Shown: positions 5,243-63,574 of the stretch, piece after piece
How the letters are laid out: each line of letters opens with the position of its first letter
Position numbering within the stretch: the first letter of the stretch is position 1
DNA from: Alphaproteobacteria bacterium
GTDB lineage: Bacteria; Pseudomonadota; Alphaproteobacteria; UBA9219; RFNS01
Assembly (NCBI GenBank): GCA_016124955.1
Contig: WGMR01000004.1
Span: 57,491-121,490 of the forward strand
DNA length: 64,000 nucleotides
Direction of reading: 5' to 3'
The notes under the pieces: generated by a model
Database searches by the model: none
Told to the model about the DNA's origin: nothing
The model's input: only the letters and a program-made list of their open reading frames with translations
Translations under genes and position numbers: made by a program

Positions 5243-6466
5243 ATGCGGGATTTCCTGACGCTGGACGATATCGACTGCCACGGCAAAACCGTGCTGCTGC
5301 GCGCCGACCTGAATGTGCCGGTGGACGAAGCCGGCACGGTGACGGACGCGACACGGCTGGAACGGCTTGCGCCGACTATCCGCGATCTCGCCGCCTGCGG
5401 CGCGCGCATCGCCGTGCTTTCGCATTTCGGCCGGCCCAAAGGCAAGCCGGAGCCCGGCAGCTCGCTGCGCCAGATCACACCCGCTTTCGCCCGCGCGCTC
5501 GGGCGCGATGTCAGCTTCGCCGAAGATTGCATCGGCGCGGCGGCACAAGCGGCCATCGGGGCGCTCGGGCCGGGCGGCGTCGCGGTGCTCGAAAACACCC
5601 GCTTCCATGCCGGCGAAACCGCGAACGACCCGGCCTTCACGGCCCAGCTCGCGAAGAACGGCGATATTTTTGTGATGGACGCTTTTTCGACCGCGCACCG
5701 CGCGCACGCCTCCACCGTCGGGCTGGCCGAATTGCTGCCCGCAGCCGCCGGGCGGCTGATGCAGGCCGAACTCGATGCGCTTGATGCCGCGCTGGAACAT
5801 CCCGCAAGGCCGGTGCTGGCGCTGGTGGGCGGCGCCAAAATATCGACCAAGCTCGATCTGCTCGGCAACCTTGTCGCGCGCGTCGATGTCCTGGTGCTGG
5901 GCGGCGGCATGGCCAACACATTTCTGGCGGCGCGCGGCGTCGATGTCGGGCAATCGCTCTATGAACGGGATATGCTCGATACCGCGCGGGAAATCGATGC
6001 GGCGGCGGCGAAAAAGGGCTGCGCCATCTTGTTGCCGACCGATGCCGTCGTGGCCGCAGAATTGCGCGAAAACGCCGTCACCGCCGTGGCCGCCGTCGGC
6101 GCGCTGCCGGCGGGTCAGAAAATTTTCGACATCGGTCCGCAAACGGTGGGCGCAATTTGCGCGAAGCTGACGGAAATGAAAACCGTGGTCTGGAACGGCC
6201 CGCTTGGCGTGTTTGAAATTCCGCCGTTCGATGCGGGCACTTGCGCGGTCGCGAACATGGCGGGCGATCTGACGGGCGCGGGCAAAATAATCTCGGTCGC
6301 GGGCGGGGGCGATACCGTTGCGGCGCTGAATGTCGCGGGCCAGGCGGAAAAGTTCACTTATATATCGACCGCGGGCGGCGCATTCCTTGAATGGCTTGAG
6401 GGCAAGGACCTTCCCGCCGTCGCCGCGCTTCGCGAAGCAAAACGCGCTCAAACAGCGAAGCGGTAG
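5243..6466 (+). CDS. pgk: phosphoglycerate kinase
   Basis: 407 aa from [11 protein letters not shown]; contains [16 protein letters not shown] and GGGA signatures. The last ~7 codons are supplied by the first copy of the tandem repeat downstream. Confidence 0.9.
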
Positions 6467-6544
6467 CGCGTTAAAAAACAAACGCTCAAACAGCGAAGCG
6501 GTAGCGCATAGAAAAACCACGCTCAAACAGCGAAGCGGTAGCGC
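6445..6544. repeat. tandem repeat, 3 copies of a 25-nt core (CGCTCAAACAGCGAAGCGGTAGCGC) with 12-13 nt A-rich spacers, period 37-38
   Basis: Cores at 6445-6469, 6483-6507 and 6520-6544. The same core, inverted with one mismatch, recurs at 62328-62447. Confidence 0.75.
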
Positions 6545-6556
6545 TTTATATTAATA

Positions 6557-7372
6557 TTATATTTCCGGCCAGGCTTCCTGAAGCCGCGGGCCGATGCGCA
6601 CAGGCGCGATCGCGGTCGCAAGCCCCGTATTGTCGCTTGTGACCACAAGCGTGCCGCATACCGTGCCTTCACCTTCGGCGGGCGCGAGCCTTTCGCCCGG
6701 TATCTTGCGGGTGAAGCGCCAGATCGCGGTTTCCTTCTTCATGCCGATCACGCTGTCATAATCGCCGCACATGCCGGCATCGCCCTGGCAGGCGGTGCCG
6801 CCGGGCAAAATTTGCGCGTCCGCCGTCGGCACATGCGTATGCGTGCCGACCACGGCCGAAATGCGCCCGTCCAGAAAATGCGCGAACGCCATTTTTTCCG
6901 AACTTGCCTCGCCGTGAAAATCGACAAAAATCGCGGCCACGCTCTGGCCCAGCCGGTGTTTTTGTAAAAATGCGTCGATCAGGGCAAAGGGGTCATCGAG
7001 CGGCTCCATGAACAAGCGCGCCATGATGTTGATCACCAGAAGTTTTTTTCCGCCCGCGCATTCTACAATGCCGTGCCCCTGCCCCGGCGTACCGGCGGGG
7101 AAATTCAGCGGACGCAAAAGACGCGGCATGCTGTCCGCGAGCCCAAGCAGCTCGCGCTGGTCCCACACATGGTTACCGGTCGTGATGCAATCGATCCCTG
7201 CGGCGAACAGTTCTTTGGCGATCGCGCCGGTAATGCCATAGCCTCCGGCCGCGTTTTCGCCGTTCACGATCACAGCGTCGGGCCGCAGCCTTTCCTTCAG
7301 CGCGGGCAAGTGCTGCAACGCGGCTTCGCGGCCGCTGCGACCGACCAGATCGCCAAGGAACAATATACGCAT
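6557..7372 (-). CDS. YmdB-like (TIGR00282-family) metallophosphoesterase
   Basis: MRILFLGDLVGRSGR...VIVNGENAAGG...GNHVWD...DFHGEASSEK...GTHTHVPTAD, the calcineurin-like phosphoesterase motif order. True start at 7372, not the ORF-track 8086. Confidence 0.75.
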   Translation of the reverse strand: MRILFLGDLVGRSGREAALQHLPALKERLRPDAVIVNGENAAGGYGITGAIAKELFAAGIDCITTGNHVWDQRELLGLADSMPRLLRPLNFPAGTPGQGHGIVECAGGKKLLVINIMARLFMEPLDDPFALIDAFLQKHRLGQSVAAIFVDFHGEASSEKMAFAHFLDGRISAVVGTHTHVPTADAQILPGGTACQGDAGMCGDYDSVIGMKKETAIWRFTRKIPGERLAPAEGEGTVCGTLVVTSDNTGLATAIAPVRIGPRLQEAWPEI

Positions 7373-16874: not shown

Positions 16875-17969
16875 ATGAGCAGCACGCATGAAAAAGAACG
16901 CAAATTGGGCCTGATCCGGGTAAGGGGCGTAAACGGCCATGCCGATTTCGTCCGCTACACCAACGACAAACGCTCTTTCACCCAGGACCTGCTGACCGAG
17001 CTGCGCAACAACCCGGCCCGCAAGAACGAACTCGATATCCGCAGCCTCGATCTTTCCGGCGCGGATCTCAGCAAGATGGATCTCAGCGGCCTGAACCTCG
17101 CGGGCATGAACCTCAAGGGCGCGAACCTCAAGGGCGCGAACCTGACCAACACCAACCTGCGCGGCGCGAACCTCGAAGGCTGCAACCTCGAAGGCGCGAA
17201 CTTCTCGGGCGCGAACCTGCAGAACGCAAAGCTGGCCGGTTCCAAGATCGGCGGCGCGGTGTTCGACCGCACCGATGCGCGCGGCGCGGATTTCACCAAG
17301 GTGCGCGGTGCCGCCCTGTTCAACGGCGGCTTTGCCGGTGCCTGCTTCGCCGGCGCGCAGATCGCGGGCTCCAACCTTCGCGACAGCAACTTCGACAACG
17401 CGCAGATGCGCGGCGTGGACCTGACCAACGCCACCGGCGACAACGTGAAATTCACCAATGCCAAGATGCAGGGCGCCAGCCTGAACAACGCGGCGCTGGA
17501 TAATGCCAACTTTTCGGGCGCTGATCTGCAGGGCGCTGATCTGCGCTACGCCGGCCTGCGCCATGCTTCGTTCGCCAGCGCGAACCTTTCGGGCGCACTG
17601 GTCAACGGCAGCACCGATCTGGGCAAGGCCGATCTGAGCTACGCCGCCACCGCCGGCACCAACATCACCGTCGCCAACATTGCCGGCGCCGAGCTGCGCG
17701 GCATGAAGTTCGGTAACCGGAACATGACCGACCGCGCCGAAAGCACCCTGATCGCAGGCAACGCGGCGCTGGAAACCGATTACAAGGGCGGCAACGACAG
17801 CTGCCGTCCGGTGATGTCCTTCAAGGCGGGTGACCGCTACGCCTCGCTCAAGGCGGCCCCCGGCCCGTCACTGACCGTGCGCAAGCCGGGCACGGAACTG
17901 GAAATGCCGGTGCGCCCGGCCGCGGCCTTCAAGCACGCGTTCCCGACCCCCTCGCCGATGGCGGCGTAA
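16875..17969 (+). CDS. pentapeptide-repeat protein
   Basis: More than 30 tandem A(D/N)LxG-type pentapeptides (GANLKGANLTNTNLRGANLEGCNLEGANFSGANL...). Confidence 0.8.
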   Translation: MSSTHEKERKLGLIRVRGVNGHADFVRYTNDKRSFTQDLLTELRNNPARKNELDIRSLDLSGADLSKMDLSGLNLAGMNLKGANLKGANLTNTNLRGANLEGCNLEGANFSGANLQNAKLAGSKIGGAVFDRTDARGADFTKVRGAALFNGGFAGACFAGAQIAGSNLRDSNFDNAQMRGVDLTNATGDNVKFTNAKMQGASLNNAALDNANFSGADLQGADLRYAGLRHASFASANLSGALVNGSTDLGKADLSYAATAGTNITVANIAGAELRGMKFGNRNMTDRAESTLIAGNAALETDYKGGNDSCRPVMSFKAGDRYASLKAAPGPSLTVRKPGTELEMPVRPAAAFKHAFPTPSPMAA

Positions 17970-36172: not shown

Positions 36173-37216
36173 TCAGGCTTTCCAGTTGCGCACCAGATCC
36201 ACAAGCTGCGCGACATGGTCCGGCGGCGTTGCGGGAAGGATACCGTGACCAAGATTAAAGATAAACGGGCCCCCTGCAAGGGCTTCCATAATGGAGGCAA
36301 CCTCGCGTACCAGCTTGCCCCCGCCCTCGAGCAATATTTCGGGCCGTAAATTGCCCTGTACCGGCCTGTCTTGCTGCAATTTGCGCGCGGCGGCCAGCGA
36401 TACGTCGCTATCTATGCCGATGGCGTCCGCGCCGCTGGCCGCGGCATAGCGGCCATAAAGCCCGCGCGCCCCGCGCGGGAAGCCGATTACGGGTATTTCC
36501 GGGTAATGCCGCTTGATCTCGGCGGTTATCTTTGCCGCCGGTCCGGTCACAAAACGGGTAAAAAGCGCCTCGTCGTGCGCCAGTAATCCGGCCCAGCTGT
36601 CGAATATCTGTAAAACCCCGGCGCCGGCGCTGATTTGCGCTATAAGATATTGCGCGCTTGCTTTGCAAAGCTGGTCTGAAAGCGCTGTCAGAAGATCCGG
36701 CTTTTCCTGCGCCCATTGCAGCGCACGGGCAAAGCCGCCGTTCTTGCCGCTTTTTCCGTCAATCATGTAGCAGGCTACCGTCCAGGGTGCGCCGCAAAAC
36801 CCTATCAGCGATGTTTTGTTGCCAAGTGCGGCGCGGACGGTTTTTATAGCCGCGCAGGTCGGCGCCGTTCCGGCTTCATCGTAAACAAGGTTCCACGCAC
36901 CGCTATCCTCGGGCAACGGGTCCAGACGCGGCCCTTCGCCTTCGGCAAAATCCAGTCTGCGGCCAAGGGCATGGGGAATAAGCAATATATCGGAAAATAT
37001 GATCGCGGCATCCAATCCGAAGCGCTTTACCGGCTGCAAGGTAACTTCGCTTGCCAGTTGCGGGTTTCCGCAAAGTTTCATGAAGCTCCCGGCCTGTTCC
37101 CGGACCGCACGATATTCGGGCAAATAACGTCCCGCCTGCCGCATCAGCCAGATCGGCGGCGGAGATGTGGCTTTGCCATTAAAAGTTTGTTCGAGCGTAC
37201 GCATTGAATTATCCAT
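36173..37216 (-). CDS. hemE: uroporphyrinogen decarboxylase
   Basis: ...PPIWLMRQAGRYLPEYR... HemE N-terminal signature. Confidence 0.9.
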   Translation of the reverse strand: MDNSMRTLEQTFNGKATSPPPIWLMRQAGRYLPEYRAVREQAGSFMKLCGNPQLASEVTLQPVKRFGLDAAIIFSDILLIPHALGRRLDFAEGEGPRLDPLPEDSGAWNLVYDEAGTAPTCAAIKTVRAALGNKTSLIGFCGAPWTVACYMIDGKSGKNGGFARALQWAQEKPDLLTALSDQLCKASAQYLIAQISAGAGVLQIFDSWAGLLAHDEALFTRFVTGPAAKITAEIKRHYPEIPVIGFPRGARGLYGRYAAASGADAIGIDSDVSLAAARKLQQDRPVQGNLRPEILLEGGGKLVREVASIMEALAGGPFIFNLGHGILPATPPDHVAQLVDLVRNWKA

Positions 37217-37606
37217 AGACGCGTTCTTCTATAATAAGAATATATAATAGATAGGAGTTGTAGGTTGGTCCTGTTGAAAATGGGTATGGAATGGCTTTTT
37301 AAGGGTTATGCGCTAAGTTATACGCAGGCTTTTTTTATAAGGCTTCAATATCCCTGTGGATCGAAACTGTGTAGCCATGTGTGCAAGTCCGCATATTGGC
37401 GCTAACCGAGGTTTGTGATTTTTGGGGGTAAACAAGGCCCTTGTTTTATCCCGGTTATACACAAGCGTGTTTGACATAACGGCTATCCTGTTGGGTAAAA
37501 GCGTGACAGTTTGTGCATGACAGGGATGATTTTCATGGGCCTGTGAAAAACCCGTTCTTGTCACCGTAATCCACAGGCACAGCGCAGGAAGGACAGAATA
37601 CCGGCA
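37205..37606. other. oriC: candidate chromosomal replication origin (Cori-type, between hemE and DUF299 gene)
   Basis: Roughly 390 bp non-coding, visibly AT-richer than its surroundings. DnaA-box-like 9-mers: TTATCCATA (37209-37217), GATCCACAG on the bottom strand (37354-37362), TTATACACA (37455-37463), TAATCCACA (37567-37575), and weak TTATCCCGG (37445-37453). AT tracts at 37224-37256. The location matches the conserved hemE|RP001(DUF299) origin site of Caulobacter and Rickettsia. Confidence 0.55.
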
Positions 37607-38452
37607 ATGGAAAGCAAGGAATTCCATATCCATCTTGTTTCCGACGCGACGGGTGAAACCATCAACACCATTGCCCGCGCCTGCCTCGTGCAATTTGAAG
37701 GCATTGAAGCGAGCCAATATTTCTGGAGCCTGATCCGCACTCCGCGTCAGCTCGATATGGCGATCGATGGTATCCGCGCCCGTCCGGGGCTTGTCATGTA
37801 CACCTTCGTTGACGAAGAATTGCGCCTGAAACTTGAGGATTTCTGCAAAAAGGAAAGCATACGCAGCATTTCGGTGCTCGATCCCGTGATGGATGCGATG
37901 CGCGACCATTTCGGCGTCAAGGCCGCGCACAATCCGGGCAAGCAGCATGTGCTGGATACCGATTACTTCGACCGGATCGAAGCGATGGATTTCGCGCTCG
38001 CGCTCGATGACGGCAACGGGTCGCGCAATCTCGAAAAGGCCGATGTCATTATCCTCGGGGTTTCGCGCACCTCGAAAACCCCGACCTGCGTTTATCTGGC
38101 CAATCGCGGCATCAAGGCCGCCAATATTCCGGTCGTCCCCGGCGTGGCGCTGCCCGAAAACCTTACGGAACTGTGCAAGGGCAGGCTGGTCGTCGGTCTC
38201 ACCAAGGATCCGGAAAGCCTGGTGGAGATCCGCCGCCACAGGCTTAAGTGGCTCAACCAGCATCAGGAAACCGATTACGTCGATCCGGACAAGGTAAAAG
38301 AAGAGGTACAGGAGGCGCGCCGCCTGTTCGCGCGTTTGGGGCTGCCGGTGATCGATGTTTCGCGCCGCTCCATTGAAGAAACCGCGGCCGAGGTTATGAT
38401 GCTATTGCAGAAACGCCGCATTGCGGCGGATAGCGGACGGGAAGGGCAATAA
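37607..38452 (+). CDS. DUF299 kinase/pyrophosphorylase (pyruvate,phosphate dikinase / PEP synthase regulatory protein-like)
   Basis: MESKEFHIHLVSDATGET...GVSRTSKTPT... hallmark of the PDRP/PSRP family. Confidence 0.85.
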   Translation: MESKEFHIHLVSDATGETINTIARACLVQFEGIEASQYFWSLIRTPRQLDMAIDGIRARPGLVMYTFVDEELRLKLEDFCKKESIRSISVLDPVMDAMRDHFGVKAAHNPGKQHVLDTDYFDRIEAMDFALALDDGNGSRNLEKADVIILGVSRTSKTPTCVYLANRGIKAANIPVVPGVALPENLTELCKGRLVVGLTKDPESLVEIRRHRLKWLNQHQETDYVDPDKVKEEVQEARRLFARLGLPVIDVSRRSIEETAAEVMMLLQKRRIAADSGREGQ

Positions 38453-44466: not shown

Positions 44467-45831
44467 ATGTCTGAAAATCCCGCGCCCGCCAACAATGCCG
44501 CCGAAACCATCTTCGCACTTGCCTCCGCGCCCGGCCGCGGCGGTATTGCCGTTCTGCGCATATCGGGCCCGCAAGCGGGCGCCGCCGCTACGGCGCTTTG
44601 CGCCGCAACCCTGCCGCCGCCGCGCACGGCGGCGTTGCGCACATTGCGCCATCCCGGCACGAAAGAAATTATGGATCGTGCGTTGCTGTTCTGGTTTCCG
44701 GCGCCCGGCAGCTTCACGGGCGAAGACGTCGTCGAATTGCATGTGCATGGCGGCCGCGCGGTGACCGAAGCGGTGGCGGAAGCGTTACGCGCGCAGCCCG
44801 GCTTGCGCCATGCCGGACCGGGCGAATTTACCCGCCGCGGTTTTGAAAACGGCAAGTTCGATCTGACGGCGGCCGAAGCGATTGCCGATCTTGCGGCTTC
44901 GGAAACCGAAGCGCAGCGCAAACAGGCGTTGCGGCAAATGGACGGCGCGCTCGCGCGCCTGTATGACGGCTGGGCCGCGCGCCTGACCCGCGCGCTCGCG
45001 CATCTTGAGGCCGATATCGATTTCGCGGACGAAGACCTTCCCCCCGATGCGTACAATGCGCCGTTGGCCGAATTGCGGGCGATGGCGGGCGATATCGCAG
45101 CGCATCTGGCAGACAGGCGCGGCGAAAGTTTGCGCGAAGGCTTCCATATCGCCATTCTCGGCGCGCCCAATGCCGGCAAATCATCCTTGCTCAATGCGCT
45201 GGCGCGGCGCGAAGCGGCGATCGTCGCGGAACAGGCGGGCACGACGCGCGATGTGATTGAAGTGCGGCTCGATCTCGGCGGCTATCCGGTCACGCTTGCC
45301 GATACCGCCGGTTTGCGCGAAAGCGCCGACGCGGTGGAAAGCGAAGGCGTAAGCCGCGCGCTGGCGCGCGCCCGCGCGGCCGATCTTACGCTGCTGGTGT
45401 TCGATGCCGCCTTGCTCGCATCGACGCCGCCCGATGCCGCGACCTTGGCGCTGGCCGGCCCCGCCAGCATGGCGGTTTTGAACAAATCCGATATCGAGGG
45501 CGCGGCGAAAGCATTGTCCGCCCCCGTCGCATCGGTCCATCCGCTTTCCGCGAAAACCGGTGCGGGCATGGAAAACTTTATCGCCGCGCTTACCCAAACC
45601 GTGGCCGCGCGTCTTGCCGATACCGGTGCACCGTCCCTTACCCGTTCCCGCCACCGCGAAGCTTTGGAGGAATGTTGCGGGGCATTGTTGCGCGCATCGA
45701 TGGCGGTTGCGCCGGAATTGCGCGCGGAAGATGCCCGCCTTGCGCTGCGCGCGCTCGGGCGCATCACCGGCCGGGTCGATGTTGAAGATTTGCTCGATGT
45801 CATATTTCGCGATTTTTGTATCGGGAAATAA
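44467..45831 (+). CDS. mnmE: tRNA modification GTPase MnmE
   Basis: N-terminal THF-binding domain, G-domain (GAPNAGKSSLLNAL, DTAG) and C-terminal CIGK. Confidence 0.95.
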   Translation: MSENPAPANNAAETIFALASAPGRGGIAVLRISGPQAGAAATALCAATLPPPRTAALRTLRHPGTKEIMDRALLFWFPAPGSFTGEDVVELHVHGGRAVTEAVAEALRAQPGLRHAGPGEFTRRGFENGKFDLTAAEAIADLAASETEAQRKQALRQMDGALARLYDGWAARLTRALAHLEADIDFADEDLPPDAYNAPLAELRAMAGDIAAHLADRRGESLREGFHIAILGAPNAGKSSLLNALARREAAIVAEQAGTTRDVIEVRLDLGGYPVTLADTAGLRESADAVESEGVSRALARARAADLTLLVFDAALLASTPPDAATLALAGPASMAVLNKSDIEGAAKALSAPVASVHPLSAKTGAGMENFIAALTQTVAARLADTGAPSLTRSRHREALEECCGALLRASMAVAPELRAEDARLALRALGRITGRVDVEDLLDVIFRDFCIGK

Positions 45832-45969
45832 AGAAAATCAGCGTATTAACCAACATTCGTGCGCCAAATTCTTGACAGAATGTGCGCCCATGGTCTTTAT
45901 GCGAATGATGATGCGCTTCGCTTGCGCCGGAATTTTTTATAAAGCCATTCGCTCAAAGGGGTTTCAATT

Positions 45970-46527
45970 ATGGCCGCAAACAGCATTGACAGTTTCTTTT
46001 CTGGCGCCGGCAAACTTATGTTTGGCAGGCAGAACTGGGCGAGGACGACACGCGGCATTATTGTGTCCGGCCTTGCCGTCGGCGCCGTGGCAATGCCGGT
46101 CGCCAAGGCTTATTTAACCGGTAAAATCATCGCAGGCCTTACAGCGCTTTCCATCGCGGCGCCCACAGCTGCGGCCCTGGCGCCCACAATTCTTCTGGGC
46201 GCGGCGCTTTGCGTAGGCGCTTACGCCGCATGGGGCGCGGTTTCCGGCGTCGCCAACGTGACGATGGCGGTGCTCGGCGATAACATGTTCGGCAGGGCGG
46301 CGAAGGCCGTCGTTGAACATCCGCGCACGACCGCCTTCCTTGTTGGCGCGGGCCTGACCGCATTCGGCCTTGCGGCCCTGCTTATGCCTGGCTTTGCGGC
46401 GCTTATACCGCCGGCCGTTACGGCCTTCGGGCTCAACGGCGCGATGACTACGGCCGTTGCGGGCGCGGGTATTATGGGATTGTCCGCGAACGCAATGCGC
46501 AATGCCGGCATGACCGGCCCGCACTGA
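45970..46527 (+). CDS. hypothetical Ala/Gly-rich integral membrane protein
   Basis: AAAGGGG RBS. A TTGACA-like -35 sits in the AT-rich 140 bp upstream region. Multiple TM segments; T-ending codons are more frequent than in the core genes. Confidence 0.5.
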   Translation: MAANSIDSFFSGAGKLMFGRQNWARTTRGIIVSGLAVGAVAMPVAKAYLTGKIIAGLTALSIAAPTAAALAPTILLGAALCVGAYAAWGAVSGVANVTMAVLGDNMFGRAAKAVVEHPRTTAFLVGAGLTAFGLAALLMPGFAALIPPAVTAFGLNGAMTTAVAGAGIMGLSANAMRNAGMTGPH

Positions 46528-46554
46528 TTTTCAATATAGACGGATTGAAGAGGC

Positions 46555-47277
46555 TCAGAGCCCCTTGGCGAGCAGCGAGATGGCCGCCGCCACGAGCAGT
46601 ATGTTGATGGCGGCGCGAAACCTGTCTTCCGATATCAGGCGCGGAACCTTGTAGCCGACCGCGAGCCCCAGCAAATGCGCGGGCAAACAAATGAGCAACA
46701 ACGTCAGAATTTCCCCATGATACATGCCGGCCGTGCCGCTGAGCGCGCAACGCAACGCATTGCCTGCGAACAAAATCAACAGAACGCTTGCCCGGAATGT
46801 TTCCTTGTTCAGCGAAAGGGTTTTCAAATAAGTCACGATAAAGGGCCCGCCCATGCCCGATATGCCCGAAACTACCCCGCCTGCCGCGCCCGCCGCCGCC
46901 TGCGCCGCCACGTTTTTCACGCCGCGCAATTGCGGAAACTTCAGCCGCGCGCCCGCCGCGACATAAAAAACCAAATAGCCGGCCAGCACGAAGTTAAGCA
47001 GGCTGTCATCGACCGTGTTGAGCAAAAACAAGCCGAGCGCGGAGGCGGCAGGGAAAACCACGGCGATCACGCCGATTCCCTTCCAATCGATATGACGCCA
47101 GATAAAAGGCAGGAGTACGCCTTTGAGCGCCTGAAACACAAGGAAAAGCGTCACGCTGTCCTTGATGCCGAACATGAGACTAAGCAACGGCACGGCGACA
47201 AGACCGCCGCCAAAACCGAACGTGGCCTCGACAAGCGAGGTGGCAAAAACGATAACGACACTCAGGAAAATTTCCAT
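46555..47277 (-). CDS. TauE/SafE-family sulfite/organosulfonate exporter
   Basis: Two-repeat 4+4 TM topology with the conserved Gly-rich GFGGG segment near the N-terminus (FGFGGGLVAVPLL), PF01925-like. Confidence 0.8.
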   Translation of the reverse strand: MEIFLSVVIVFATSLVEATFGFGGGLVAVPLLSLMFGIKDSVTLFLVFQALKGVLLPFIWRHIDWKGIGVIAVVFPAASALGLFLLNTVDDSLLNFVLAGYLVFYVAAGARLKFPQLRGVKNVAAQAAAGAAGGVVSGISGMGGPFIVTYLKTLSLNKETFRASVLLILFAGNALRCALSGTAGMYHGEILTLLLICLPAHLLGLAVGYKVPRLISEDRFRAAINILLVAAAISLLAKGL

Positions 47278-47331
47278 GCGCTTTTATGGCAGGAAAAGCG
47301 CCGGGTGGGAAATTTGTATGATAGTCCGGGT

Positions 47332-48048
47332 TTAGTGTGCCGGCGCGTAGTCGCCGCTGAAATCGACGTCGCTTTTCACGAGCCGGAGATGCGGAACACT
47401 TTTCTTCTGCGCCGCCCTGGTTTCCGCTTTTTGTTGTTCGACCAAGGCTTCGGCCTCGCTCACAAGATAATCCGCGACCATTGCCAGTTCCTGCGCGATG
47501 CTTACTTGGTCCTGCGGGTCGCTCAGCTCGATGTAATCGATATTAAATTCGCGCAACGTGTTGCAGCAATGCAGGCTGCTGACAAGCAGCGAAAGATCGT
47601 GGAACAGGGTGCCGATGCGCGTCGCCATCGCGCGCATGCGCGTCTTGGCCGGGCCGGTCGCGAGCCCGCAGCGCGTCAGCGCATGGATGAAATCGTTGCC
47701 GAAAATCATGGCATCCGGCGCGATGCCGTGCTGGCCGTCTTCGTTGTTGCGGCCGCGCGTGATCCACGCGCGCATCTGTTCACGCACGGCGGTGTTGCCA
47801 TCACCCGCGCCGCCAACCTCGCCGTCCGGGTCAAGTCTGGTGGGCAGCCATGCCAGTTCATCGAGCTGGTGACGGATCGCGCGCATGCCCATGCGCTCGG
47901 CCTGCATATAAGCGAAGGCGTATTCGTCGCGGCTGCAATCGGCCGAAAGGCTATGCGCGGCCAAAATGGCCTCGCGTTCGCCGGCGATGCGCTCCTTGGC
48001 GGCCATCAGAAGGCCGCGCACTTCATCGATATGTAATTCGGTGGCCAT
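47332..48048 (-). CDS. hypothetical protein (239 aa)
   Basis: ORF from MATELHIDEVRGLL...; several HxxxE/ExxH-type spacings. No confident family. Confidence 0.5.
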   Translation of the reverse strand: MATELHIDEVRGLLMAAKERIAGEREAILAAHSLSADCSRDEYAFAYMQAERMGMRAIRHQLDELAWLPTRLDPDGEVGGAGDGNTAVREQMRAWITRGRNNEDGQHGIAPDAMIFGNDFIHALTRCGLATGPAKTRMRAMATRIGTLFHDLSLLVSSLHCCNTLREFNIDYIELSDPQDQVSIAQELAMVADYLVSEAEALVEQQKAETRAAQKKSVPHLRLVKSDVDFSGDYAPAH

Positions 48049-48354
48049 GGGCCTGTTCCGATCCCTTGTTTCGCGGCACCGGGCCGCAAAGCCCGAAATA
48101 ACCGCACAAAGGTTAATTTTAACCAAAATATATCCATAAATTGTTAAGCCACAGCTTTAACAATCAATCATTAAACATATGATATATAACAATAATTTTT
48201 GTGTCATTGGCCTTATGGGTGCCTTTGCGGCTAAGACGCTGATATCCCTGCCTGTCTCAAAATTTTTTTTAATTGTGCAACAAAAGTTCGTTAAATATCG
48301 CCATCAGCGCACATTCTTTGCGCGCGCGGGCGTTTCGCCCTATACCTTCCGGCC

Positions 48355-50214
48355 ATGCAGGATTTTGATGTCATCATTGTTGGCGGTGGCCATGCGGGCT
48401 GTGAGGCCGCCGCCGCGGCCGCGCGGCTTGGCGCGCATACGCTGCTTGCTACGCATAAGCCTGAAACCATAGGCGAAATGTCGTGTAACCCGGCAATCGG
48501 CGGGCTCGGGAAGGGCCATTTGGTTCGGGAAATTGATGCGCTGGATGGCGTCATGGGCCGGGTGGCTGACCGCGCGGGGATCCAGTTTCGGCTTTTGAAC
48601 CGTAGCAAGGGCGCTGCCGTGCAAGGCCCGCGCGCGCAGGCGGACCGAAAACTTTATCGCCGCTATATGCAGGAAGTGCTCGGCAGTCAGCAAAACCTTT
48701 CCATTCGCGCCTGCGCCGTGGGCGATCTGATCGTTGGCGCCGATAACCGTATCGAAGGTATCGTGACCGAGCAGGGCGAAGTGCTGCGTGCCGCAGCCGT
48801 TGTGATTACGACGGGCACGTTCCTGCGTGGCCTTGTTCATATCGGTGCCGAAAAGATACAGGCTGGCCGTATAGGTGAAGCGCCATCCACGAAGCTTTCG
48901 GCCACGCTTGCACGGCTCCGGCTCGCGCTTGGCCGGCTCAAAACCGGTACACCCCCGAGGCTCGATGGCCGGACGATCGATTGGGCCGGGCTTGAAATGC
49001 AGCCGGGCGACGAACCGCCTATACCCTTCTCGACCCTAACATCCGCGATCACAAATCCCCAGGTTTGCTGCGGCCTGACCTACACATCTGCCGACACGCA
49101 CAACATGATCCGCGCCAACCTCGACCGCTCGCCGATTTATTCGGGACAGATCGAAGGGACGGGCCCGCGTTATTGCCCTTCGATCGAAGACAAGGTTGTG
49201 CGTTTTGCAGACAAGGAACGGCATCAGATTTTCCTCGAGCCCGAAGGGCTAGACGATCACACCGTATATCCAAACGGCATCTCAACATCGCTGCCGCGTG
49301 ATGTGCAGGATGCACTCGTGCGATCCATACAAGGTCTTGAAAATGTTAGTATTTTGCGCCACGGCTATGCGGTTGAATATGACTATGTCGATCCCCGGGA
49401 ACTGACCGCATCGCTCGAAGTCAAGCGCGCGCCCGGGCTTTTTCTGGCGGGACAAATCAACGGCACCACGGGCTATGAGGAAGCGGCGGCACAGGGGCTG
49501 ATTGCCGGGCTGAATGCTGCGCTCAAGGCAAGCGGCAGCTCGCCCTTCACCCTTTCCCGCACGCAAGCCTATATCGGCGTGATGATCGACGATCTGATTT
49601 CCCGTGGCACCGCCGAGCCTTACCGCATGTTCACAAGCCGCGCCGAATACAGGCTTAAGTTACGGGCAGACAATGCCGACCAGCGCCTTACCCCGGCGGG
49701 CCTGGAGCTCGGATGCGTGGGGCCAGAAAGACGGCAGAAATTCACGAGCAAGATGAGCGAGCTGGCCCGCGCGCGGACGATGGCTGAAGGATTTTCTGCC
49801 AGCCCAACCGCGCTTGTGAAACAGGGCGTGCACATCAACCAGGATGGGGTGCGGCGTAGCGCCATGGATTTGCTGGCCTATCCCGATGTTTCACGTGAAA
49901 CATTGACCAGAATTTGGCCACAACTATCTGATATTAAAACAGAAATTTTGAATCAAATCGAGACAGATGGCCGCTATGCCGGCTATATGGACAGACAGGA
50001 TGCCGATATTCGGGCCTTCGAGAAGGATGAAGCTTTGCGACTGCCGGCCGACCTGGATCTCGATGCCATCGGCGGGCTTTCGGCTGAGGTACGGCAAAAA
50101 CTGGCGCAGGTACGTCCGCAGACGCTTGGTGCGGCCGCGCGCATTCCGGGGGTTACGCCAGCGGCCACCCTGGCACTCTTGCGCTATGTTAAACGCAGTA
50201 AAAAAGCAGCATAA
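48355..50214 (+). CDS. mnmG: tRNA uridine 5-carboxymethylaminomethyl modification enzyme MnmG (GidA)
   Basis: [22 protein letters not shown] fold, full-length GidA. Confidence 0.95.
49887..49902. promoter_or_regulatory. parS: parS centromere site (TGTTTCACGTGAAACA)
   Basis: Perfect 16-bp palindrome identical to the ParB-binding consensus; lies inside the mnmG 3' region (encodes DVSRETL). Confidence 0.75.
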
Positions 50215-50235
50215 TCAACAATATAGGTGATATTT

Positions 50236-50970
50236 ATGACCGATGTTTCACGTGAAACATTCCTGACCCATTTTCCCGATGTTTCACGTGAAACATTGGA
50301 CAAGCTCGATCGCTATGCCGCGATGCTTACCGAATGGCAAAAGAAGATGAACTTGGTTGGTCCGGGCACGTTGTCCGAGATATGGACCCGCCATTTTCTG
50401 GATAGCGCGCAATTGATGCCATACCTGCCGCAATGGACCAGAAGCGTGACCGATATTGGCAGCGGTGCAGGTTTTCCCGGCATGGTGCTGGCAATTTTGG
50501 GTGCGCCACACGTAAACCTTATTGAAGCAACCCAGAAAAAGGCCCGTTTCCTTGAGGCGGTGGCAACAGAGCTTGGGCTTGAGGTGCATATTCATGCCGA
50601 GCGGTCCGAGCTTGTGCGCAACATACGGTCAAGCGTTGTGACGGCGCGTGCCGTGGCGCATATGGATGAGCTGATTCCCTATGCTTTCCCGTTTCTGGAT
50701 AAGGGCGGGATCATGATTTTCCTTAAGGGTCAGCATGTTGAAGAAGAATTGACAGCGGCAGCCAAAGATTGGCACTTTGAAGCCAGCAGGCATGCTAGCC
50801 TTAGCGATCCTTCCGGATTCGTATTGGTGTTGCAGGGCGTCGGCCATAATCAAAGCACCCGCAAGGATGTCCGTTGGCGCGGGCTGGGGCATGTGACCAA
50901 GGCGGGCGTTTCGACGCAAAAAGTTGTGACCCCGCCGCCGAAGCCGGAGCCCGACCCGGAGCCGAAATAG
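50236..50970 (+). CDS. rsmG: 16S rRNA (guanine527-N7)-methyltransferase RsmG (GidB)
   Basis: VSRETLDKLDRYAAMLTEWQKKMNLV...DIGSGAGFPG SAM-methyltransferase motif. Unusual Pro/Glu-rich C-terminal tail (VVTPPPKPEPDPEPK). Confidence 0.9.
   Translation: MTDVSRETFLTHFPDVSRETLDKLDRYAAMLTEWQKKMNLVGPGTLSEIWTRHFLDSAQLMPYLPQWTRSVTDIGSGAGFPGMVLAILGAPHVNLIEATQKKARFLEAVATELGLEVHIHAERSELVRNIRSSVVTARAVAHMDELIPYAFPFLDKGGIMIFLKGQHVEEELTAAAKDWHFEASRHASLSDPSGFVLVLQGVGHNQSTRKDVRWRGLGHVTKAGVSTQKVVTPPPKPEPDPEPK
50244..50259. promoter_or_regulatory. parS: parS centromere site (TGTTTCACGTGAAACA)
   Basis: Perfect consensus palindrome in the first codons of rsmG. Confidence 0.75.
50280..50295. promoter_or_regulatory. 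parS: parS centromere site (TGTTTCACGTGAAACA)
   Basis: Third perfect copy, 36 bp after the second, also within the rsmG 5' coding region. Confidence 0.75.
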
Positions 50971-51070
50971 GCGGGAGGACGGAAACAGGACCGCGCGATT
51001 GTAGTAATGTGTTATTATAATAATACAGTTTGCAGAAAGCCATAACCCGAAAGCAGCAAGGAAGCGCCGC

Positions 51071-51925
51071 ATGAGCTCAGATCAAACCAAGTCCGGCGGC
51101 GTCGCGCCCGGCATCACGCCGCCCGAACGGTGCCGCATCATCGCGATCGTTAATCAGAAAGGCGGGGTCGGCAAAACCACCACCACCGTCAATCTCGCGA
51201 CCGCGCTTGCCGCCGTCGGCATGCGGGTGCTGGTGGTCGATCTCGATCCGCAGGGCAACGCATCCACCGGTTTCGGCGTGCCGCGCAGCGCGCGCGAGCG
51301 TGGCGGCTATGAGATGATTTTCGACGGCATGAGCGTGGAAGACGTTGCGGCGGCGACGCCCATTCCGGGTTTGCAGATCGTGACATCCTCGGCCGACCTT
51401 GCGGGCGCCGAGATCCAGCTCGTGAACGCCGAGCGGCGCGAGAGCCGCTTGCGCGAAGCGCTCGAGCGCAGCGAAAAGGATTTCGATTACATCCTGATCG
51501 ATTGCCCGCCCTCGCTGAACCTTTTGACGCTCAATGCGCTCGTGGCGGCGCATAGCCTGATCGTGCCGCTGCAGGTGGAGTTCTATGCGCTGGAGGGCAT
51601 CAGCAACCTTGTGCAAACCGTGGAAGCGGTGCGCACGCGCTTTAACCCGGGGCTTGTGATCGAAGGCGTGGTGCTGACCATGTTCGACCGCCGCAACGCG
51701 CTTTCGGAAGCGGTTGCGAAAGACGTGCGCGATTATTTCGGTGACCGCGTTTTCACCACGGTGATCCCGCGCAATGTTCGCATTTCCGAAGCGCCTTCGC
51801 ACGGCAAGCCGGTTCTGCTTTACGATCTGAAATGCCCGGGTTCGCGCGCCTATATGCATCTCGCGAGCGAGGTTTTGAAGCGCGAAGGCAGGCCGCTGGG
51901 CGCGAGCGAAAGCGCCGTGGCGTAA
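51071..51925 (+). CDS. parA: chromosome partitioning ATPase ParA
   Basis: Deviant Walker A (NQKGGVGKTTT). Confidence 0.9.
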   Translation: MSSDQTKSGGVAPGITPPERCRIIAIVNQKGGVGKTTTTVNLATALAAVGMRVLVVDLDPQGNASTGFGVPRSARERGGYEMIFDGMSVEDVAAATPIPGLQIVTSSADLAGAEIQLVNAERRESRLREALERSEKDFDYILIDCPPSLNLLTLNALVAAHSLIVPLQVEFYALEGISNLVQTVEAVRTRFNPGLVIEGVVLTMFDRRNALSEAVAKDVRDYFGDRVFTTVIPRNVRISEAPSHGKPVLLYDLKCPGSRAYMHLASEVLKREGRPLGASESAVA

Positions 51926-51944
51926 TACTGAGGGAGAAAAAACC

Positions 51945-52928
51945 ATGACCAACAAAACCAACGCAGCGCTGAAAGATACGGGCAAGCCGGCCCCGCTGGG
52001 CCGCGGGCTCGCGGCGCTGTTCGGCGATGCCGACGCATCCTATCAGCAAGCGCCGGGCGCGCCTGCTACCGCTTCGGGCGCCGCCGCGCAAAGCCCCGCG
52101 CCGCAAACCGCGCCGCAAACCGCGCAGCAAAAAAGCCCGCAAACCATGCCGCTAAGCTGGCTGCAGCCCGGCCGCTTCCAGCCGCGCCGCCAGTTCGACG
52201 AAACCGCTTTGCGCGAACTTGCGGCTTCGGTGCGCGCGCGCGGCGTGCTGCAACCGCTGCTGGTGCGGCCGCTTGCCGAAAAAAATTCATACGAGATTGT
52301 GGCGGGCGAGCGCCGCTGGCGCGCCGCGCAGATCGCGGGCGTGCATGACGTGCCGGTGGTCGTGCGCGCGCTTTCGGACAAGGAAACGCTTGAGGTCGCG
52401 CTGGTCGAAAACATCCAGCGGCAGGACCTTAGCGCGGTCGAGGAAGCGGAAGGTTACCAGCGCCTGATGGATGAATTTTCCTATACGCAGGAAGACCTGG
52501 CCAAGACCGTGGGCAAGAGCCGCAGCCATGTGACCAACATGCTGCGCCTGCTTGGGTTGCCGCAAACGGTAAAAGATATGCTGGCCAGCGGCGCGCTCAG
52601 CCCCGGCCATGCGCGCGCGCTGATCGCGACCGACGACCCCGAAGCGCTGGCGAAGGCTATTGCGGAAAACAGCCTTTCGGTGCGCGATGCCGAAGCGCTT
52701 GCCAAGCGGCATGGCGACGGCAAGGCGCGGCAGGGCAAGAAAGCCGGCAAGGCGCAAAAGCGCGGCGAGATCCGCACCGCGGACGTGATCGCGCTCGAGC
52801 GCGATCTGGCCGCCACGCTCGGGCTCAAGGTTGCGCTCAAGGCCCGCACCGACGGCAGCGGGACGCTGACGGTGGCGTACAAGGATCTCGAGCAGCTCGA
52901 CGGGTTGATCGGGAAGTTGCGGGGGTAA
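51945..52928 (+). CDS. parB: chromosome partitioning protein ParB
   Basis: ParB box (GERRWRAAQIAG), HTH and C-terminal dimerisation region. Three parS sites lie about 2 kb upstream. Confidence 0.9.
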   Translation: MTNKTNAALKDTGKPAPLGRGLAALFGDADASYQQAPGAPATASGAAAQSPAPQTAPQTAQQKSPQTMPLSWLQPGRFQPRRQFDETALRELAASVRARGVLQPLLVRPLAEKNSYEIVAGERRWRAAQIAGVHDVPVVVRALSDKETLEVALVENIQRQDLSAVEEAEGYQRLMDEFSYTQEDLAKTVGKSRSHVTNMLRLLGLPQTVKDMLASGALSPGHARALIATDDPEALAKAIAENSLSVRDAEALAKRHGDGKARQGKKAGKAQKRGEIRTADVIALERDLAATLGLKVALKARTDGSGTLTVAYKDLEQLDGLIGKLRG

Positions 52929-61714: not shown

Positions 61715-62302
61715 ATGGCCTATGAATATTCTGCAGAAAACCATAATTGGGATCTGACCTTGAGGGCATCATGGAACCTTCTTATGTCAGGTCAGGCGGC
61801 TAGCAAGGGGCCAAACCTTGAAAAAAAGAACGAACAAGTATTTTCATTTTTTACCGGATCAATGTTGCTTGCTTTTTGTGCAATCGAAAACTTCACAAGC
61901 TCGGTTGCATTTTCGATGCCTGACCATGACAGGTTTAGAGCCTTTGATTATGAAGGCTACAAAAGAATAATCAGATTTTGGGATAAAATAGAGAAGGTGT
62001 GCGCTGCGTTAAATCAGCCGGTAGATAAATCGCAAGGTCTTTTTCAAATAATCAAAGAAATGCAAATTTGGAGAAATGCACTATCCCATACTTCGTCCTA
62101 TGAAATCGAAAGTACGGAGATTCAGGATACTGTTAAAGATTCTTCCATGCTACACGTACCCTTTCACAACAAGGAATACGCGCGGTCTGTCAACGTAGGT
62201 AATGCCAAGAAGTTTTATTGTGCAGCATATAATTATATTGATATGGTCAAGAATGCGTCCGGGATTGAACCCAGGGCAAGCTGCACATATAAGCCAATTT
62301 AG
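61715..62302 (+). CDS. hypothetical protein in a strongly AT-rich island; RNxxxH (HEPN-like) motif
   Basis: AAGGA RBS. Codon usage and GC differ sharply from the flanking genes. WRNALSH fits the Rx4-6H HEPN signature. Family assignment is tentative. Confidence 0.5.
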   Translation: MAYEYSAENHNWDLTLRASWNLLMSGQAASKGPNLEKKNEQVFSFFTGSMLLAFCAIENFTSSVAFSMPDHDRFRAFDYEGYKRIIRFWDKIEKVCAALNQPVDKSQGLFQIIKEMQIWRNALSHTSSYEIESTEIQDTVKDSSMLHVPFHNKEYARSVNVGNAKKFYCAAYNYIDMVKNASGIEPRASCTYKPI

Positions 62303-62327: not shown

Positions 62328-62447
62328 CGCGTGGCTTGAGCGTGGTTGTTCCGCGCTACCGCTTCGCTGCTTGAGCGTGGTTGTTCCGCGCTACCGCTTC
62401 GCTGCTTGAGCGTGGTTGTTCCGCGCTATCGCTACGCTACTTGAGCG
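62328..62447. repeat. tandem repeat, ~3.5 copies (period 35) of the inverted 25-nt core GCGCTACCGCTTCGCTGCTTGAGCG
   Basis: Cores at 62353-62377, 62388-62412 and a degenerate one at 62423-62447. This is the reverse complement (one mismatch) of the core at 6445-6544. Confidence 0.75.
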
Positions 62448-62452
62448 CGGGA

Positions 62453-63436
62453 TTATTCCGCCGCTTCGGTGTCTTTTTTTTGGGCCAGCACTTCGGCGGG
62501 AAGTCTGATCTGGCGCCGCTGATAGCGGTAGCCGGAAACGAAGCGGGCGAAATGCTGCACGAGCTGCGGATCGCGCGACAGGCGCGCCAGCGTATCGCCC
62601 AGTTGTGCCATATGACCGGCCAGCGCCTTTTCCCCGCCCGCCTGCGCGCCCGCGGGGACGGCCGCGCGGAACAGCGGCTCATGCACCGCGCGTTCGAACA
62701 ACTGCGTAACAAGATCGAGCCCGATCACGGGTGTGACGCCGAAGGCGACATGGATCGTGGCTTCGCTGGTCGCCAGCGCGTCATGGTACCAGCCGCGCGG
62801 GATGTAGAGGATATCGCCCGGCTCCAGCAGCACATCGAGGCTGACGGGCCCGTGGTTCTTTTCGTGAAATTCCGGCGGCAGGCCTTTGAAGGCCGGGTGT
62901 GCCACGGGATCCGGGATCGCGCACTGATAGACTTTCCAGCGTTTGGTGCCCGCGACATGCAGGGCATAAACATCGTGCGTATCGAAATGGGTGCCGAAGC
63001 CCTTATGCGCCTGCCACGAACAATAAAGATTGGCTTGCGCCTTTCCGCCCGCGGTTTCTTCGAGGATCGCGGAAATTTGCTGCAGCGGCGCCGACAGGTT
63101 ACCGATATCGTTGGCGACCAGCGATGCGCCGCGCCGCAACCAGCCCAGCAACTGTTCGGCATCCACGAGCCAGTTATCGCGCCCGTCGCGATCGGTGCCG
63201 CGCGTGCAATATTCCTGCGGCGGGATTTTTCTAAGCTGCCAGGCAAGCTCGAGCGAGCGCTGGGTCCAGAGGCTGTTCTGGCTGAGCAGGGATGAAAGAG
63301 CATCCCAGTTCATCACGCCATCGAGCTTTTTGGCCGCGCCCTTGATATGCAGCGGCTTGCGCCGGTGATATTCGGCGAAAAACTCGCTCTCCGTCATCGG
63401 CGCGAGAAGTTCCGGAAAAGATGCGGGTATTGGCAT
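62453..63436 (-). CDS. cupin-4 / JmjC-domain protein (ribosomal-oxygenase-like)
   Basis: HFDTHDV...H (HxD...H 2-oxoglutarate/Fe(II) facial triad) within a JmjC-like cupin fold. Confidence 0.7.
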   Translation of the reverse strand: MPIPASFPELLAPMTESEFFAEYHRRKPLHIKGAAKKLDGVMNWDALSSLLSQNSLWTQRSLELAWQLRKIPPQEYCTRGTDRDGRDNWLVDAEQLLGWLRRGASLVANDIGNLSAPLQQISAILEETAGGKAQANLYCSWQAHKGFGTHFDTHDVYALHVAGTKRWKVYQCAIPDPVAHPAFKGLPPEFHEKNHGPVSLDVLLEPGDILYIPRGWYHDALATSEATIHVAFGVTPVIGLDLVTQLFERAVHEPLFRAAVPAGAQAGGEKALAGHMAQLGDTLARLSRDPQLVQHFARFVSGYRYQRRQIRLPAEVLAQKKDTEAAE

Positions 63437-63574
63437 AAAATCACTCCCGTTAACCAATCAACCATGCCACAAGCCCGTAATATAGGCCATCCGGGGCATG
63501 AAACAATTGCGCCCGTGCCCCCGGATTTGCTTTTATGGGCCCGCATATTTTAACGATTTTATTGAACCATTGCC

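Follow-up and report, generated by a model that had tools for sequence, protein, structure and literature searches.

A family of small hairpin repeats, widespread in Alphaproteobacteria, that supplies the 3' end of a pgk gene

Two repeat arrays lie between convergent gene ends

The window analysed here is a 64,000-nt stretch of the genome of an uncultured Alphaproteobacteria bacterium (GenBank assembly GCA_016124955.1, contig WGMR01000004.1, positions 57,491 to 121,490). It carries two arrays of a short hairpin-forming repeat, one at the end of the phosphoglycerate kinase gene pgk (locus 1) and one beside a JmjC/cupin-domain gene (locus 2), which belong to a real and widespread family of small hairpin repeats that is apparently undescribed. 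At locus 1, the 25-mer CGCTCAAACAGCGAAGCGGTAGCGC occurs in three exact copies on the plus strand (6445-6469, 6483-6507 and 6520-6544), separated by A-rich spacers of 13 nt (GTTAAAAAACAAA) and 12 nt (ATAGAAAAACCA), as an earlier reading of the same DNA, hereafter the original prediction, had stated. The true unit is nevertheless 26-27 nt rather than 25, copies elsewhere in the family having a G at -1 and mostly a purine at +1. The same reading placed about 3.5 inverted copies with one A/G difference at 62328-62447, where we find two one-mismatch copies in which A8 is replaced by G (62353-62377 and 62388-62412, minus strand), a diverged third copy (CGCTCAAGTAGCGTAGCGATAGCGC, 62423-62447) and one fragment, with spacers GGAACAACCA and a period of 35 nt. 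Both arrays indeed lie between convergent gene ends, pgk(+)/YmdB-like(-) and AT-rich ORF(+)/JmjC-cupin(-), where ORF stands for open reading frame (Table 1).

Table 1 Coordinates of the repeat copies and the genes that flank them in the window
Feature	Position	Strand	Remarks
pgk (phosphoglycerate kinase)	5243..6466	+	Last six codons (AQTAKR) and TAG within repeat copy 1
Locus 1, hairpin copy 1 (G + 25-mer + G)	6444..6470	+	Covariance model 44.8 bits; holds pgk stop
Locus 1, A-rich spacer 1, GTTAAAAAACAAA	6470..6482	+	A-rich 3' flank common to whole family
Locus 1, hairpin copy 2	6482..6508	+	Covariance model 42.8 bits
Locus 1, A-rich spacer 2, ATAGAAAAACCA	6508..6519	+	
Locus 1, hairpin copy 3	6519..6545	+	Covariance model 39.8 bits; 12 nt short of convergent ymdB-like stop codon
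YmdB-like metallophosphoesterase gene, convergent	6557..7372	-	Pfam YmdB, E=3e-97; also a called gene in L152
AT-rich accessory ORF, HEPN-like	61715..62302	+	GC3 0.42; convergent with array; context, not part of the element
Locus 2, fourth copy, truncated	62328..62342	-	Core positions 1-9 CGCTCAAGC, then sequence diverges
Locus 2, third copy, G8 variant	62352..62378	-	44.5 bits
Locus 2, second copy, G8 variant	62387..62413	-	44.5 bits
Locus 2, first copy in sense direction	62422..62448	-	Diverged T9, T14, A19; 41.2 bits
JmjC/cupin-domain gene	62453..63457	-	Pfam JmjC_2, E=5e-25; start codon uncertain

An origin of the arrays by chance or artefact is ruled out by shuffled sequences, by an independent assembly and by the presence of the repeat in isolate genomes. 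Dinucleotide-preserving shuffles (n=100) gave a mean of 0.00 matches with at most three mismatches versus 5 observed, and an unfiltered covariance model run over all 64 kb returned six copies only, at 40-45 bits, the next match scoring 14.8 bits. Locus 1 reappears base for base in a second, independently made short-read assembly of this organism (Logan SRR10063240). One contig of that assembly, L151 (10,696 nt), stops within the locus-2 array, which indicates that the repeat family breaks short-read assemblies. Nor are the two arrays the inverted ends of a single 56-kb mobile element, as the origin region and housekeeping genes lie between them and single copies also occur scattered at other places.

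The pgk stop codon, TAG at 6464-6466, lies inside copy 1, whose flanks lengthen the outer stem of the hairpin to about 8 bp; the outer stem of copy 2 has only 4 bp because of an A at -1. The Pgk product is identical (100%) to the database entry 'MAG: phosphoglycerate kinase [Alphaproteobacteria bacterium]' (MAG, metagenome-assembled genome), and the next-closest Pgk shares only 68% identity. The proposal that the repeat remodels the C-terminus of the enzyme is correct insofar as the last six codons and the stop derive from copy 1, but only the variable tail beyond LPxVAAL is altered. When the C-termini of 120 relatives were compared, the tails past these last conserved residues proved to be unrelated and unconserved stretches of 1-14 residues. 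The 11-residue tail found here therefore falls within the normal range, and its replacement is unlikely to affect the enzyme.

The conserved module is two helices joined by an invariant loop

Core composition was tallied over 197 instances and the flanks over 121 singletons. The core is nearly invariant among these instances, and its 16-nt internal sequence is nearly invariant across carriers. Position -1 is G in 100% of the singletons and +1 is a purine in 98%; the flanks are rich in A from +1 to +9 and in C from -2 to -6. The outer helix of the module has 5 bp, with G-1..T4 paired to A21..C25. It is followed by an asymmetric internal loop of invariant sequence, 5'-CAAGYA opposite 5'-GRT, closed by the invariant pairs T4-A21 and G11-C17, and by an apical mini-hairpin with the canonical sequence GCGNAGC; an A-rich flank lies on the 3' side. 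Within the apex, G13 is present in 197/197 copies and A15 in 195/197, N14 is free (A, T, G and C all occur), and in the loop R19 is A in 20% of copies.

In an alignment anchored solely on the inner 16-mer, the outer helix changes on both sides at three of its five pairs, with a covariation score that none of 500 shuffles reached. Slid registers are 17-65% paired, versus 94.5% in the true register, and ten outer-stem variants are fully compensated (GCGCT/AGCGC, GCCCT/AGGGC, GTCCT/AGGAC, TCGCT/AGCGA and GGGCT/AGCCC among them). This pairing replaces the CGCT-N6-AGCG hairpin initially proposed, since CGCT (1-4) together with G-1 pairs with AGCG (21-24) and C25, not with AGCG (10-13): CCCT accompanies AGGG and TCCT accompanies AGGA, while positions 10-13 remain AGCG.

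A search anchored on the loop strands retrieved 33 non-canonical apices of 7-12 nt that still form terminal Watson-Crick stems (mean 2.9 pairs vs 0.48+/-0.13 shuffled), with GCCGAAGGC, GGCCGAAGGCC, GCCGATAGGC and GCCCTCCGGGC among the sequences that replace GCGNAGC. Because the loop strands are kept while the apices vary, the conserved object is the helix - CAAGYA/GRT loop - helix, a geometry kept only in a folded single strand, which argues against a duplex binding site as well as against the CGCT-N-AGCG fold. Several familiar identities were considered and rejected. K-turn, sarcin-ricin/loop E, tetraloop-receptor and SRP-like loop readings do not fit the variation at Y9/R19 and G8/U20, and mimicry of 23S (AAGGUAGCGAAAUUCC) or of 16S h23 amounts to resemblance only. 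An encoded peptide (ATG-core, MRSSSEAVA...) was discarded because ATG precedes only ~10-14% of copies.

The family spans alphaproteobacterial orders and reaches Chloroflexota

Using a slightly degenerate 25-mer and one genome per species, we found the core in at least 120 genome stretches spanning at least six alphaproteobacterial orders, which excludes a core confined to two loci by local duplication alone. Among the matches listed, carriers belong to Sphingomonadales, Rhodobacterales, Caulobacterales, Hyphomicrobiales, Parvularculales, Maricaulales and others, and those outside Alphaproteobacteria are four complete Caldilineaceae (Chloroflexota) chromosomes and several Actinomycetota MAG contigs. 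Carriage by Caldilineaceae is genuine, since the gene abutting the array has relatives only in Caldilineaceae, Chloroflexota and Poribacteria. Some other non-alphaproteobacterial carriers look mis-binned.

Several loci can occur in one genome: counted by contig, the window holds two arrays in 64 kb, and Tropicibacter S64 and MFD02809.bin each bear the element on three contigs. The element is almost entirely chromosomal and rare on plasmids. It is present in 21 IMG/VR viral contigs and absent from cultured-phage records. Two contigs deserve separate mention: the 650-nt 'Patescibacteria' contig L033 consists of a Rhodobacterales-type 23S intervening-sequence fragment, and the 5.7-kb 'Actinomycetota' contig L039 has its orthologues in L025 and L045, two sdhB loci of Alphaproteobacteria; both look mis-binned.

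Copies cluster at gene 3' ends and fill rRNA-operon spacers

Within 2.5 kb of the element at 120 loci (among the matches listed, as for all statements on neighbours below), no protein family recurs, and neither does any transposase-like gene. Convergent spacers make up 25% of element-bearing spacers and 18.5% of the background, so that the anticipated enrichment at convergent junctions is present but weak; more evident is a deficit in divergent spacers (7% vs 20% in the background, chi-square p=0.04). In co-directional spacers, 19/35 sense copies begin no more than 13 nt after the upstream stop, several genes stop at the TAG at 9-11 or 20-22 of the core, and some copies follow an ATG and reach or overlap the start codon of the next gene (L122, L131). 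GC-rich CCTCCCC...GGGGAGG hairpin repeats often accompany the element in mosaic intergenic clusters (L056:2150-3050, L061:800-1050, L024, L068).

Placement between convergent genes, where positive supercoils accumulate, might suggest a double-stranded DNA site for a nucleoid, topology or regulatory protein, for example gyrase or IHF as at bacterial interspersed mosaic elements (BIMEs), or the ligand of an operator array. The palindromic outer arms (GCGCT...AGCGC) and the A-tracts beside each core fit such a site. We nonetheless consider it highly improbable: the convergent enrichment is weak, copies also lie inside rRNA intervening sequences, and the arms covary as base pairs, with arm variants coexisting in one genome (L133). 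Moreover, the distance between the conserved blocks varies by at least 5 nt with apex length, which a hairpin absorbs by keeping the blocks juxtaposed but a duplex binder would not tolerate.

In Rhodobacterales rRNA operons every spacer is filled, with 4-7 copies per operon, 42 of them in sense and 1 in antisense orientation overall. The copies occupy at least six distinct positions, namely the leader and those after 16S, before 23S, in the 23S helix-45 intervening sequence, after 23S and on both sides of 5S. In three helix-45 intervening sequences (L019:3700-3880, L037:1880-2060, L006:3790-3970) the element folds as a sub-hairpin that immediately precedes the 3' strand of the stem of the intervening sequence, and in the Marivita helix-45 copy the apex is replaced by GCCC-TCC-GGGC. 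This suggests that such intervening sequences were built from, or colonised by, these elements. At L019:5510-5758, the 5S gene stands between two direct copies of a GGCCT...AGGCC stem variant. No composite larger element was found between paired cores, such pairs simply flanking 5S rRNA or small genes.

Sense-only orientation in rRNA operons, with copies in the leader and upstream of 23S near a boxA-like GCTCTTT, would also suit a site that recruits a NusG paralogue in the manner of ops, or some other antitermination signal sensed in the RNA of transcribed operons or on their non-template strand. The 12-nt ops motif, located in operon leaders, folds by itself into a mini-hairpin (C3:G8) in the non-template strand. 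GCGGTAGCG in the core matches 9/12 bases of the enterobacterial ops element GGCGGTAGCGTG, and ...GGC-apex variants give GGCGGTAG. Such a site is, however, very unlikely, because the positions that follow TAG are part of the covarying outer stem and vary freely (GGTAGGAC, GGTAGGGC), R19 is A in 20% of copies, and many copies stand at 3' ends between convergent genes, where antitermination would be pointless. The RfaH ops element itself (GGCGGTAGnnTG) was rejected on the same variation 3' of TAG, on the many copies at gene 3' ends, and on covariation that pairs G22 and C23 with C3 and G2, not with C17 and G16.

Elements insert at discrete sites and then amplify locally

Of the 176 sites, 136 hold a single copy and 40 are arrays; the latter contain 2-8 copies, repeat every 33-44 nt (mode 35) and have array-specific spacers of 8-19 nt. 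All 40 arrays run head-to-tail, and few loci have copies on both strands. Two GFO-family oxidoreductase genes flank an orthologous site in Caldilineaceae at which L150 is empty, with a 36-nt spacer, while L148, L149, L147 and L005 carry 1, 3, 5 and 6 copies, some of them 5'-truncated; the upstream gene ends differ in sequence (APR*, AP*, ASN*, ALK*). The spacers in these arrays resemble the flank of the empty site (atcccacaac vs attcaacac), which indicates that arrays grow by duplicating the core with its flank. This explains why spacers are array-specific. A poly(A)-like tail belonging to the element is not supported, since at this site tail and spacer both show homology to the flank already present in the empty site, and the spacers thus represent duplicated target flank. 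Copy numbers also differ at further orthologous sites (8/2/1, 3/2 and 2/4). The history is thus one of discrete insertion followed by local duplication and deletion of core plus adjacent flank, in the manner of a variable-number tandem repeat (VNTR). Deletions fuse a gene end to the repeat, as at pgk; by this route the last codons of an upstream gene could be overwritten, with the TAG at core positions 20-22 or 9-11 becoming its stop.

The core is held far more constant than its surroundings. At the Caldilineaceae GFO site, intact cores are identical at 25/26 positions, compared with 60-65% identity at third codon positions and ~50% in spacers. Within arrays, divergence amounts to 5.4% of sites in cores, about one third of the 15.8% seen in internal spacers (p=3e-8).

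It is possible, if somewhat doubtful, that the repeat is a selfish non-autonomous single-stranded DNA (ssDNA) hairpin element, comparable to the hairpin-forming doublets (REPINs) of repetitive extragenic palindromic (REP) sequences or to IS200/IS605-derived palindromes, and copied in trans by an HUH/Y1-type transposase encoded elsewhere. Conservation would then reflect enzyme specificity, and effects on transcripts would be incidental. The insertion polymorphism with its empty orthologous site fits such an element, as do the L-shaped spectrum of mismatches, in which perfect copies abound and decayed ones form a thin tail, the absence of terminal inverted repeats at the element ends and the merely marginal signal of target-site duplication (longest common flank substring 4.10 vs 3.84+/-0.09). 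Chromosomal residence, with rarity on plasmids and absence from cultured-phage records, is likewise REPIN-like. In related phage tail modules the spacer that separates the sheath gene from the tube gene holds the element in one orientation or the other, and the T-rich/A-rich flank keeps the same side of the core; relatives of these modules that lack the element are too distant (54-57% identity) to define junctions. That the A-rich side is always 3' of the core, antisense insertions included, implies that target choice is oriented. The apex T-(C)AAG-..-GCGNAGC further resembles REPs of Citrobacter, Enterobacter and Klebsiella (PMC2817692 Table 1), which are associated with REP-associated tyrosine transposases (RAYTs), and a sense fraction of 62% in mRNA spacers against ~100% in rRNA operons would be expected from the strand of replication.

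Other observations oppose a selfish element. No transposase-like gene recurs within 2.5 kb of it at 120 loci, RAYTs are reported to be rare in Alphaproteobacteria (PMC5581495), and its copies are single or head-to-tail, almost never in REPIN-type inverted pairs. Both arrays of the window are on the lagging strand of their replichores and the rRNA-operon copies on the other one, and no single replication-strand rule accounts for this. Finally, orthologous copies that stay intact at 25/26 positions over saturated synonymous divergence would be unexpected without selection or conversion.

A candidate processing or stability signal read by a conserved protein

The two loop strands remain side by side regardless of apex length, and cores evolve more slowly than synonymous sites. 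Together, these properties point strongly to a conserved partner, namely a sequence-specific trans-acting protein that recognises the module in folded single-stranded form. We tentatively favour, at close to an even call, the reading in which this protein-recognised hairpin acts in transcripts as an RNA processing or stability signal. The module would be recognised as RNA in transcribed spacers, that is, in 3' untranslated regions, intercistronic gaps and every rRNA-operon spacer, where it would signal processing or protect 3' ends. Such a role is supported by the 42:1 sense bias in rRNA operons, by the sense copies that begin close behind upstream stops, by the scarcity in divergent spacers, and by the sense orientation of both window arrays to the genes they abut despite their opposite replichores. 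For pgk and the cupin gene, every copy would contribute a hairpin of approximately -8.5 to -11 kcal/mol directly at or after the stop codon, and in the opposite direction the array may offer the convergent gene weak hairpin-plus-U-tract units. On the strand of the ymdB-like gene, the locus-1 array reads as three weak hairpin-plus-T-tract units. Antisense terminator-like matches number 3 vs 0.9 expected at locus 1 and 4 vs 1.8 in the locus-2 region, where 2 of them are repeat units. An intrinsic terminator on the sense strand was rejected, since the hairpin there precedes an A-rich tract, not a U-tract.

Several observations weigh against a role in transcripts. The orientation bias in co-directional protein-gene spacers is weak (35 sense vs 21 antisense, p=0.08), the 42:1 ratio in rRNA operons may represent only 6-7 independent events because the copies are partly orthologous, and phage spacers accept the element in both orientations. 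Single units fold only ~1-1.7 SD better than shuffles, and stem mismatches, rare overall, comprise 10 G.T and 9 A.C, which is unusual for an RNA motif. With no excess of G.T over A.C, wobble asymmetry was uninformative as a guide to the functional strand, and the stems do not decide between RNA and ssDNA forms. Conservation of the core could, moreover, come from gene conversion or re-insertion instead of site-wise selection.

A more specific proposal, which we regard as rather unlikely, is that the module represents a new class of single-strand signal, with two covarying helices and a CAAGYA/GRT loop, read by a dedicated protein conserved across Alphaproteobacteria and in Caldilineaceae. That protein might be an rRNA/mRNA processing or 3'-end-protection factor, or a domesticated hairpin-specific transposase distinct from the RAYT/REPIN system. 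A processing or protection factor would explain both the saturation of rRNA spacers and the site-by-site conservation.

Neighbouring genes and other features of the window

The JmjC-cupin 3' end adjoins the sense side of the locus-2 array, the first copy of which begins 5 nt past the stop codon. On the other side of the array, the AT-rich ORF (GC3 0.42 in a genome of 61% GC) has no Pfam or NCBIfam match and a weak PADLOC match (LeoA, E=0.006). Its family of 21 proteins shares an invariant R120-N-x3-H125 (Rx4H) motif, and the best Foldseek matches of its AlphaFold model (pLDDT 80) are HEPN toxins of HEPN-MNT systems, with a probability of 0.98-0.99 but E ~0.04 and TM 0.4-0.54. The invariant RNxxxH motif and the resemblance in fold speak, weakly, for the earlier HEPN-like label. 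Homologues adjoin an IS3-type transposase or a DUF5677-like gene, and no arrays were found beside them.

The juxtaposition of this ORF and an array brings to mind a type III toxin-antitoxin RNA array (ToxI-like 34-45-nt repeats with an adjacent endoribonuclease, here the HEPN-like ORF), or a CRISPR-like one. The period of 33-44 nt resembles that of ToxI-type repeats, and the A-rich linkers could be cleavage sites. Yet the locus-2 array is downstream of and convergent with the ORF, rather than upstream on the same strand, and the genes downstream of both arrays are convergent; homologues of the ORF lack arrays, no conserved gene adjoins or follows the element at 120 loci, and most sites (136/176) are single-copy. 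The spacers, 8-19 nt long, A-rich and near-identical within an array, are equally unlike those of CRISPR, and no cas-like or other recurrent neighbour was found, in accord with the original prediction. We assign such arrays next to no probability.

The chromosomal replication origin is probably at 36173-37620. Here, hemE (URO-D, 36173-37216, minus strand) adjoins a 390-nt AT-richer spacer, three one-mismatch DnaA boxes lie at 37209, 37455 and 37567, and the cumulative GC skew has its minimum at ~36 kb. The Pfam-confirmed genes mnmE, gidA (mnmG), parA and parB are at 44-53 kb (44467-52928, plus strand), and rpmH-rnpA-yidD-yidC at 2.5-5 kb on the minus strand. The two arrays thus occupy opposite replichores, on either side of the hemE origin region, each in sense orientation to the gene that it abuts. 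ORF 50227-50970 stands where gidB would be expected. Overlapping period-15 tandem-repeat calls at 17088-17690, within ORF 16875-17969 (+), are compatible with a pentapeptide-repeat-type protein. Outside the window, L005:2036-3142 (Caldilineaceae) contains tandem units of ~200 nt with repeated peptide blocks (…GIFRMAGGPPALVRSYERWTRDGERLREIMSV…) in ORFs of both strands, unrelated to the hairpin element.

Significance

Small dispersed hairpin repeats are normally genus-specific. The present family is distinctive in its combination of a near-invariant 16-nt interior over at least six orders plus Chloroflexota, covariation, occupancy of rRNA spacers, and absence from Rfam and from the searchable literature, a combination that implies a conserved recognition partner. 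Discovery of that partner would bring to light, in a major bacterial class, a novel signal for RNA processing or stability, or else a novel type of domesticated mobile-element system. The VNTR-like variation in copy number has potential use in strain typing. For annotation, it matters that arrays rewrite gene 3' ends and stop codons; they also interrupt short-read assemblies, and the element could flag MAG contamination and mis-binned contigs.

Comparison with known repeat and RNA families

Rfam 15 gave 0 matches in the window and, at four element-rich rRNA loci, rRNA and tRNA only; a relaxed search returned chance-level matches of at most 14 bits. A literature search with the literal sequence string found nothing relevant (one unrelated paper on a Neisseria methyltransferase), and a keyword search found REP/RAYT literature only.

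The original prediction likened the arrays to REP/BIME elements rather than to CRISPR. The element is indeed a dispersed, hairpin-forming extragenic repeat: a GC-rich imperfect palindrome, folding into the covarying 5-bp outer helix and apical hairpin, that lies near gene 3' ends, often less than 15 nt from stops, and is clustered and mostly chromosomal. Its defining features, however, are not those of REPs, which bear an unpaired GTAG or CGTC tag (PMC3733652, PMC2817692) and have 6-13-bp stems arranged mostly as inverted dimers, head-to-tail dimers being absent or under-represented (PMC3733652). In our element the outer stem has 5 bp, both ends are paired (G-1/C25) and no unpaired terminal GTAG/CGTC tag is present; its only GTAG, at 19-22, is shared between loop and stem and reads ATAG in 20% of copies. 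Its copies stand alone or in head-to-tail arrays, unlike the inverted pairs of REPINs and BIMEs, no RAYT link was seen within 2.5 kb at the 120 loci, and conservation extends across at least six alphaproteobacterial orders and Caldilineaceae instead of one genus. The nearest architecture is that of enterobacterial GTAG-3 REPs, as the REPs of Citrobacter koseri, Enterobacter sakazakii and Klebsiella have a stem ending in T, a 5' AAG bulge and a GCGNAGC apex (PMC2817692 Table 1). The inner design …T-AAG-GCGNAGC-GC… is shared.

Among tandem repeats, the element resembles MIRUs and VNTRs in being an intergenic direct repeat that varies in copy number between relatives and overlaps stop and start codons. 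MIRUs, described by Supply et al. (1997), are reportedly genus-specific direct intergenic repeats of 40-100 bp in operons, with ends that overlap the flanking stop and start codons. Our element differs in its covarying hairpin with an invariant loop, and an ATG precedes only ~10-14% of its copies. The type III antitoxin RNAs ToxI, CptI and TenpI are arrays immediately upstream of a toxin gene and specific to one locus. They share with the element head-to-tail structured units of ~35 nt and A-rich linkers, but the element has no conserved neighbour and most of its sites are single copies. The canonical apex, finally, is exactly the GCGNAGC of the d(GCGAAGC)/GNA-triloop mini-hairpin reported by Hirao et al., which is a physico-chemical motif, not a genetic element. 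In the family described here, that apex can be replaced by other hairpins, and it is the internal loop that forms the invariant part.

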